In this document: positions 43,981 through 44,606 of the stretch, in pieces
Numbering within the stretch: position 1 is the stretch's first letter
Layout of the letters: the number at the start of each line of letters is the position of its first letter
Assembly (NCBI RefSeq): GCF_003334785.1
Contig: NZ_QOWV01000003.1
From: Escherichia coli
Lineage (GTDB): Bacteria > Pseudomonadota > Gammaproteobacteria > Enterobacterales > Enterobacteriaceae
Length of the DNA stretch: 64,000 nt
Direction: 5' to 3' (one strand)
Position numbers and translations under genes: made by a program
The notes under the pieces: generated by a model
Seen by the model: only the letters and a program-made list of their open reading frames with translations
What the model was told of the DNA's origin: nothing
The model's database searches: none

Positions 43981-44295
43981 ATGGATGACACCAGCCGGGA
44001 CCCGGCAATAACCGAAGATGAAATCAGGGCGCTGCAATTTTCTGCCGGGGATGTAGCGGAAATAGAGCAGACGATTCTCTCTTTTGTCGATGCCTGCCAC
44101 ACCCGTAAAGTGGCGATGGTGGTGGGTAGCACCATTAACACCCTCAAAGATCGCGATGGTAAACGGTGGGGAAACCTGCCGGATATTTATTGCGCTTATC
44201 TTATCCGATGTCTGGTTTTTCGCGGGGAATTAGTGGGATACGGCGATTTGTTTCGTATGCGCTATAGCGAAATTAAGCGACCGGTTACCTTATGA
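43981..44295 (+). CDS. yjeN: small soluble protein of unknown function
   Basis: 104-aa ORF MDDTSRDPAITEDEIRALQFSAGDVAEIEQTILSFVDACH... Confidence 0.75.
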   Translation: MDDTSRDPAITEDEIRALQFSAGDVAEIEQTILSFVDACHTRKVAMVVGSTINTLKDRDGKRWGNLPDIYCAYLIRCLVFRGELVGYGDLFRMRYSEIKRPVTL

Positions 44296-44606
44296 GTGCG
44301 CGCATGTTTGTCTTATGCTGCATCTGGTTTATTGTGGCGTTCCTCTGGATAACCATCACTTCCGCGCTGGACAAAGAGTGGATGATTGATGGACGCGGGA
44401 TTAACAACGTCTGCGATGTGTTGATGTATCTCGAAGAAGACGATACCCGTGATGTTGGTGTGATAATGACGTTACCGCTCTTTTTCCCTTTTCTCTGGTT
44501 CGCTTTGTGGCGAAAAAAACGCGGCTGGTTTATGTACGCCACCGCGCTGGCTATTTTCGGCTACTGGCTGTGGCAGTTTTTTCTGCGCTATCAGTTTTGT
44601 TTGTGA
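44292..44606 (+). CDS. yjeO: small inner-membrane protein of unknown function
   Basis: 104-aa ORF MSARMFVLCCIWFIVAFLWITITSALDKEW...; Trp/Phe-rich helices; start overlaps yjeN stop (ATGA). Confidence 0.75.
   Translation: MSARMFVLCCIWFIVAFLWITITSALDKEWMIDGRGINNVCDVLMYLEEDDTRDVGVIMTLPLFFPFLWFALWRKKRGWFMYATALAIFGYWLWQFFLRYQFCL

Follow-up and report, generated by a model that had tools for sequence, protein, structure and literature searches.

Between the transporter gene yjeM and the convergent mechanosensitive-channel gene mscM, Escherichia coli chromosomes can carry two small overlapping genes, yjeN and yjeO, which count among the genes of E. coli K-12 without a function. Their arrangement raises the question as to whether the two proteins work as a unit, or whether yjeN and yjeO are separate genes that merely share a site. 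We addressed this question for a 64,000-nucleotide stretch of K-12-like E. coli DNA (assembly GCF_003334785.1, contig NZ_QOWV01000003.1; here called the window, to which coordinates refer unless a locus handle such as L001 precedes them). The initial annotation, made from the letters of the window, had likened these two proteins without an assigned function to toxin/immunity or stress-response modules. As described below, yjeN-yjeO is not an obligate pair: the two are accessory, separable genes, which had not been demonstrated before, and the obvious reading as a pair is misleading. In addition, both proteins can now be given a structural or family identity. The locus is laid out as follows:

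43981–44295, plus strand: yjeN coding sequence, an ATG-initiated open reading frame (ORF) for 104 amino acids, a stand-alone DUF3658-type winged helix with its core at about residues 22–99 (nucleotides 44044–44277).
44292–44606, plus strand: yjeO coding sequence, an ATG-initiated ORF for 104 amino acids, a DUF2645 inner-membrane protein.
44292–44295, plus strand: stop/start overlap ATGA, in which the yjeO ATG overlaps the yjeN TGA.
43971–43974, plus strand: Shine-Dalgarno-like AGGA, 6 nucleotides before the yjeN ATG, read from the sequence.
42427–43929, plus strand: yjeM, transporter gene and left border of a variable islet.
44635–47958, minus strand: mscM, a mechanosensitive-channel gene that runs convergently and bounds the variable islet on the right.

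Among 5426 complete E. coli genomes, with a feature scored as present when at least 80% of it is covered, yjeN is found in 2153 (40%), yjeO in 3021 (56%) and the whole two-gene segment in 2150. About 870 genomes have only yjeO and about 2400 have neither gene; yjeN on its own is seen in about three. Both genes are accessory, not core. The yjeO-only form is an internal deletion of yjeN, and the empty form of the islet keeps a degenerate 5' stub of yjeN. At the same site in Salmonella either yjeN stands alone, which is very common (L004–L007), or yjeO does (L008). These solo genes are still under purifying selection, with a ratio of non-synonymous to synonymous substitution rates (dN/dS) of 0.03 for yjeO in the yjeO-only form and 0.10 for Salmonella yjeN. 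Co-conservation, which the initial annotation had named as the check on a functional pair, therefore fails on several counts: the yjeO-only genomes, those with neither gene, the single genes of Salmonella, and a different partner of yjeO elsewhere (see below).

The same distribution bears on a classic two-gene toxin-antitoxin pair, in which, for example, the hydrophobic YjeO would poison the cell and the winged-helix YjeN would neutralise it. Two small, overlapping, co-transcribed genes for a soluble winged helix and a membrane protein would suit such a system, as would their patchy occurrence. However, each gene is stably kept without the other in large clades, which is incompatible with an obligate toxin/antidote relationship; moreover, YjeO has a different upstream partner in other genera, and there is no match to toxin-antitoxin or defence models. 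An obligate toxin-antitoxin pair was rejected on the yjeO-only E. coli genomes and the Salmonella single genes, and we consider a classic system of this kind highly improbable. What survives of the proposed toxin/immunity or stress module is an immunity-type role, which is still the best guess; the obligate pair is refuted.

Deletion of yjeN has left a 12-codon mini-ORF (MCYSEIKLRVIS and stop) in E. coli NRZ105019 (L001:1780–1830). Its end keeps the ATGA overlap with yjeO, and the coupling of yjeO may therefore survive the loss of yjeN. In Salmonella, palindromes resembling repetitive extragenic palindromic (REP) elements (GCCGGATAAG...CGCATCCGGC; L004:6380–6515) fill the space between yjeN and mscM where yjeO is missing, and a similar REP-like element lies directly upstream of yjeN in the same locus.

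Separable as they are, yjeN and yjeO are genuine, fast-evolving protein genes under purifying selection. This follows from Nei-Gojobori dN/dS values of 0.10–0.19 for yjeN and 0.03–0.18 for yjeO, measured against alleles of Salmonella, E. albertii and divergent E. coli (L032 in the case of yjeN); the two flanking genes, yjeM and mscM, lie at 0.02–0.13. The non-synonymous divergence (dN) to Salmonella is 0.23 for yjeN and 0.29 for yjeO versus 0.07 in the flanking genes, and the amino-acid divergence rate of the two genes is 3–4 times that of the flanks. The GC content of the locus is ordinary, so that composition gives no sign of a recent foreign origin. The two 104-residue ORFs, their 4-nucleotide overlap and their position between a transporter gene and the convergent mscM are all as first described, and the genes are already known and annotated: RefSeq chromosomes matching a 1201-base query around the locus annotate yjeM, yjeN, yjeO and mscM in this order, many of them with 100% identity.

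E. albertii (L033) and a divergent E. coli allele of ~90% identity (L032) also keep the ATGA overlap, and the sequence read ahead of yjeO contains no Shine-Dalgarno-like motif. With an overlap conserved across lineages and a downstream gene without its own ribosome-binding site, yjeN and yjeO are translationally coupled. The coupling on which a fixed stoichiometry had been proposed is thus real, but operon junctions very commonly consist of a 4-nucleotide ATGA overlap, which on its own says little about stoichiometry. We suggest that the two genes would be co-transcribed and coupled only through the tight packing of the islet, with the overlap reflecting compaction and joint transcription and not a stoichiometric complex.

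YjeO is a full-length member of Pfam DUF2645 (PF10840; E = 4.3e-41, model positions 1–98 of 98), a family that is not mentioned in the literature searched. The view of YjeO as a Trp/Phe-rich membrane protein is confirmed by 8 Trp and 12 Phe among its 104 residues and by three hydrophobic segments in the hydropathy profile. Membrane helices are predicted at about residues 6–25, 56–73 and 79–98, and the loop formed by residues 26–55 is conserved. Across 40 full-length family members, conservation of at least 90% is found for the loop motifs DKEW, N-x-C-D and E-N-D-D-x-R, for the tail W-L-W-x-F-x-x-R-Y-x-x-C, and for Cys41 and Cys103. Because the N-terminus and the RKKRG turn are basic, the positive-inside rule would put both in the cytoplasm, and the loop 26–55 and the C-terminal tail in the periplasm. 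This predicted topology brings Cys41 and Cys103 together, and they therefore probably form a disulfide. Pfam searches of YjeO gave no sensor or protease domain. Outside Escherichia and Salmonella, DUF2645 reaches Citrobacter, Kosakonia, Trabulsiella, Enterobacter, Pseudocitrobacter and Erwinia.

In most genera DUF2645 genes are coupled to a gene other than yjeN, whereas those of Escherichia and Salmonella occur with yjeN or alone. In Citrobacter freundii, C. farmeri and Kosakonia, a gene for a protein of ~235 residues abuts or overlaps the yjeO-like gene at the same chromosomal site, and in Erwinia iniecta the two are coupled at a different site (L021, L025, L028 and L030 represent these genera). 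The module is also present in 45 of the 5426 E. coli genomes (L020:2107–4528 and L003). In L020 a 237-residue version overlaps a second yjeO-like gene that is 53% identical, and in the islet a yjeO pseudogene interrupted by an in-frame stop codon comes first, followed by a second, divergent copy of the mscM 3' end, a frameshifted IS630 and the two-gene module. This looks like the import of a Citrobacter-like module by recombination. Decayed and fresh copies stand next to each other in islet form D.

No signal peptide is present in the ~235-residue protein. It hits phrog_11932, whose function is unknown, with E values of 1e-25 to 4e-29. Its match to a transglycosylase PHROG is weak (E = 0.03). 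A comparison specified in advance aligned it to the SLT domains of Slt70 and EmtA; the catalytic Glu, GLMQ, N-I and YNxG fall in register, and the statistics are weak (hhalign P 0.006, probability 6%; hmmsearch E 0.002/0.007 for two targets). PADLOC returned no match for it, and a direct tblastn search of 50,697 phage records gave none either. A candidate lytic-transglycosylase-like, or SLT-like, gene is thus the usual partner of DUF2645, an identification that is new. We also considered whether YjeN could be a truncated remnant of the ~235-residue gene; this was rejected, as tblastn finds no trace of one in the other in either direction and the hhalign probability is 0.5%.

Such an arrangement invites comparison with holin-endolysin cassettes such as lambda S-R, since the other genera likewise encode a ~105-residue three-helix membrane protein beside an SLT-like enzyme without signal peptide. 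Under this explanation the YjeO family would be a holin-like or docking partner that gets the signal-less enzyme to the periplasm for lysis or peptidoglycan remodelling; K-12 would retain the membrane half only, and yjeN, itself unrelated, would have hitch-hiked into the place of the enzyme gene. The tight coupling of enzyme-like and yjeO-like genes in four genera and at two chromosomal sites is in line with this, as are the phage relatives of the enzyme-like protein in phrog_11932, the size and three-helix layout that YjeO has in common with class I holins, and the lack of relationship between YjeN and the ~235-residue protein. However, a holin without its enzyme should decay, yet yjeO persists alone under purifying selection (dN/dS 0.03–0.18). 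Holins typically have a charged cytoplasmic C-terminal tail, which YjeO lacks; it has instead a cysteine pair and a loop of 30 conserved residues. Moreover, the gene order is opposite to that of the usual lysis cassettes, there is no prophage context, and direct tblastn matches of the enzyme-like protein in the phage records are missing. We therefore regard a cell-wall cassette remnant as unlikely.

Turning to YjeN, its description as a soluble acidic protein is right in that it has no hydrophobic segment, consistent with a cytoplasmic location, but it is only mildly acidic (isoelectric point 5.33; 16 Asp/Glu versus 14 Lys/Arg). Close homologues are confined to Escherichia and Salmonella. YjeN alone has no Pfam match even at E<=10, NCBIfam, PADLOC and PHROGs give nothing usable, and PDB sequences show no meaningful match to the YjeN profiles A2 and A4. 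A profile built from 10 sequences, run with HMMER against 1.84 billion representatives, yielded 185 proteins at E<=1e-3. These remote matches are mostly stand-alone proteins of ~100 residues, and in the rest the match is a C-terminal module of varied proteins of 130–320 residues. Of 19 remote relatives sampled, 16 match PF12395 (DUF3658) at model positions 44–106. The YjeN-clade profile (A2) aligns with a profile of stand-alone DUF3658-type proteins (A8) over 99 columns with an hhalign probability of 99.7% (E = 7e-26), and one such protein, P0150, finds E. coli yjeN in a reciprocal tblastn search (40% identity, E = 1e-6). The motifs RKVAMVVG, PDIY, G-x-L and RMRYSE are common to both.

An AlphaFold2 model of YjeN based on a 69-sequence alignment (predicted local distance difference test (pLDDT) 95, predicted template-modelling score (pTM) 0.87) is a winged helix with the topology H1-strand-H2-H3-hairpin wing and structural matches to solved winged helices. 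It supersedes an earlier model from 10 close homologues (pLDDT 68.5), with which Foldseek had retrieved YjeN's own family only. By alignment, motifs and modelled fold, YjeN is securely a remote homologue, a divergent stand-alone winged helix of the DUF3658 type. The assignment is new, and in the literature searched DUF3658 is not mentioned at all and DUF1835 only in passing. YjeN differs from the family in staying below every Pfam threshold, in the loss of the consensus Q/R residues from helix 3, and in its coupling to a DUF2645 gene, which is seen in no other member. The usual DUF3658 architecture is also absent, as the 104 residues consist of the winged-helix module only, without DUF1835 or another N-terminal domain; about 65 of the remote matches likewise stand alone at about 100 residues. 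The earlier view that neither protein is recognisable does not hold for YjeO or for YjeN.

A winged helix encoded with a membrane protein could also point to regulation. YjeN would then be a DNA-binding (auto)regulator controlled by YjeO in a small envelope-stress circuit, comparable to the PadR or BlaI/MecI-type repressors whose genes accompany those of membrane partners. The fold of YjeN, the conserved translational coupling and the rarity in E. coli of genomes with yjeN but no yjeO all speak for this, as does a microarray study that lists yjeO, and only yjeO of the two genes, as 2.6-fold up on sigma-E induction (PMC2731931). On the other hand, no sigma-E-type promoter (GGAACTT-N15-17-TCAAA, with up to 2 or up to 1 mismatches) is present on the plus strand of 43301–44400. 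The putative recognition helix of YjeN, residues 68–80 (IYCAYLIRCLVFR), is mostly hydrophobic and belongs to a net acidic protein, unlike the basic recognition helices of BlaI/MecI-BlaR1 and PadR-type modules. The absence of a sensor or protease domain from YjeO is a further difference from such modules. Co-conservation is missing as well: Citrobacter, Kosakonia, Erwinia and those ~870 E. coli genomes keep yjeO without yjeN, Salmonella retains yjeN without yjeO, and no membrane protein recurs beside the YjeN-like genes found elsewhere. A regulator-sensor circuit is, in our view, doubtful. Besides the microarray entry, the literature searched contains a pan-genome association between the presence of yjeO and competitive growth among mastitis strains, and no experimentally assigned function for either gene, so that the initial statement on this point stands.

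The genomic contexts of YjeN-like genes offer another way to approach function. A scan of species-representative genomes gave 17 loci, mostly from Gammaproteobacteria and one from a metagenome-assembled genome of Desulfovibrio sp. (UBA6079), with heterogeneous neighbourhoods. The YjeN-like genes stand singly, in variable or mobile DNA. In the Desulfovibrio locus (L034:125-4722), an RHS protein with YD repeats, an Rhs core and a C-terminal domain of ~105 residues is followed after 111 nucleotides by a YjeN-like gene for 107 residues, then by an orphan Rhs core with C-terminal domain and by a 116-residue three-helix membrane protein. Toxin, immunity, orphan toxin and immunity genes are canonically arranged in this order. 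In L044 a Barstar gene adjoins the YjeN-like gene, and other YjeN-like genes adjoin an integrase or an IS110 transposase. On the Klebsiella IncN plasmid NZ_CP057318.1, a class 1 integron carries a 172-residue DUF3658 ORF (L017:4568-5086) as a gene cassette, flanked by dfrA1 and aadA. We take this cassette to resemble orfC/gcuC. The only match to YjeN in the phage collection is a Salmonella chromosome contig, which gives no support to a phage origin, and no PHROG matches the DUF3658 relatives.

Together, these observations lead us to propose, tentatively and with less than even confidence, that yjeN-yjeO is a decaying accessory islet holding two independently acting, immunity-like orphan genes. 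Ancestrally, YjeO would most likely have served to protect the envelope from the ~235-residue lytic-transglycosylase-like protein or to restrain it; the gene for this protein lies directly upstream of yjeO-like genes in other Enterobacterales, and K-12 would retain YjeO as an orphan. YjeN, as a cytoplasmic winged helix, would most likely bind and neutralise a macromolecular partner in the manner of an immunity protein or antitoxin-type binder. The association of yjeO with competitive growth among mastitis strains also speaks for this proposal. The locus has much in common with the orphan immunity islets of Rhs, contact-dependent inhibition (CDI) and type VI secretion system (T6SS) effectors: the genes are small, fast-evolving and packed in a presence/absence hotspot, form D has decayed copies beside fresh ones, one YjeN homologue occupies an Rhs immunity slot and another sits beside barstar, and a yjeO-like membrane-protein gene follows a signal-less gene resembling a cell-wall enzyme. 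The position of an immunity gene, right after a gene for a toxin domain, is absent at the K-12 locus and present for the one YjeN homologue in L034; yjeO-like genes occupy it only if the ~235-residue SLT-like protein is a toxin.

Several points weigh against the proposal. Unlike polymorphic-toxin islets, the E. coli locus has no toxin gene, Rhs core or secretion genes; no toxin gene, Rhs/CDI remnant or secretion-system gene adjoins it in K-12, and no VENN, PAAR or LXG marker is found there. The supporting neighbourhoods are few, with the Rhs slot accounting for 1 of 17 loci. YjeN, YjeO and their relatives have no PADLOC match, and with no Pfam or NCBIfam match for the ~235-residue protein and an hhalign probability of only 6%, its assignment as a transglycosylase is weak. 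DNA or RNA would be an equally plausible ligand for a winged helix. Finally, the conserved overlap and the fact that E. coli hardly ever has yjeN without yjeO fit a functional link between the two as well. It is the lack of a toxin at the K-12 locus and the small number of supporting neighbourhoods that keep our confidence in two immunity-like orphans low. A more specific version of this idea, which we consider rather improbable as a whole, is that the yjeM-mscM spacer would be an orphan-immunity hotspot with two undescribed immunity families. DUF2645 would be a membrane-anchored inhibitor of new signal-less, SLT-like cell-wall toxins (the phrog_11932 relatives), circulating with its toxin as a two-gene module in Enterobacterales, and the stand-alone DUF3658 winged helix would be a widespread cytoplasmic immunity domain. 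The probability that is left beyond two immunity-like orphans, a regulator-sensor circuit, a cassette remnant and a toxin-antitoxin pair belongs to some other explanation.

The remaining features of the locus are two strong hairpins, one on either side of yjeN-yjeO:

43934–43964, plus strand: 13-bp hairpin without U tract between the yjeM stop and yjeN (-25.3 kcal/mol, z -6.4).
44599–44634, no strand assigned: 14-bp hairpin without U tract (-21.3 kcal/mol on the plus and -24.0 kcal/mol on the minus strand, z -6 to -7).

The first is kept in islet forms B and D and is likely an RNA-stability element or weak terminator. The yjeO stop codon falls within the second, which yjeO has in common with the 3' end of the convergent mscM. 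Rfam gave no match at the yjeN-yjeO locus at E<=1, and sigma-70 and terminator scans of the locus were no better than shuffles. At the left border, yjeM ends in one of two haplotypes, ...QWAVE or ...ELALD (window 43900–43929; L002:1680-1730; L032:4200-4230), which travel with different islet alleles and therefore suggest recombination breakpoints inside the yjeM 3' end. The longest ORF of yjeM has a GTG start at 42385; the RefSeq start lies 42 nucleotides downstream and gives a 500-residue product beginning MPHTIKK. An 85-codon antisense ORF inside yjeO (44285–44542, minus strand), with no homologues of its own among the matches, is most likely spurious.

For E. coli, the consequences depend on whether the immunity reading is correct. 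If it fails, the locus would be a decaying remnant of little consequence. If it is true, yjeN and yjeO would add two protein families to the inventory of genes for interbacterial competition, and a role could be given to DUF3658, which occurs throughout the Proteobacteria and is also carried by resistance integrons.

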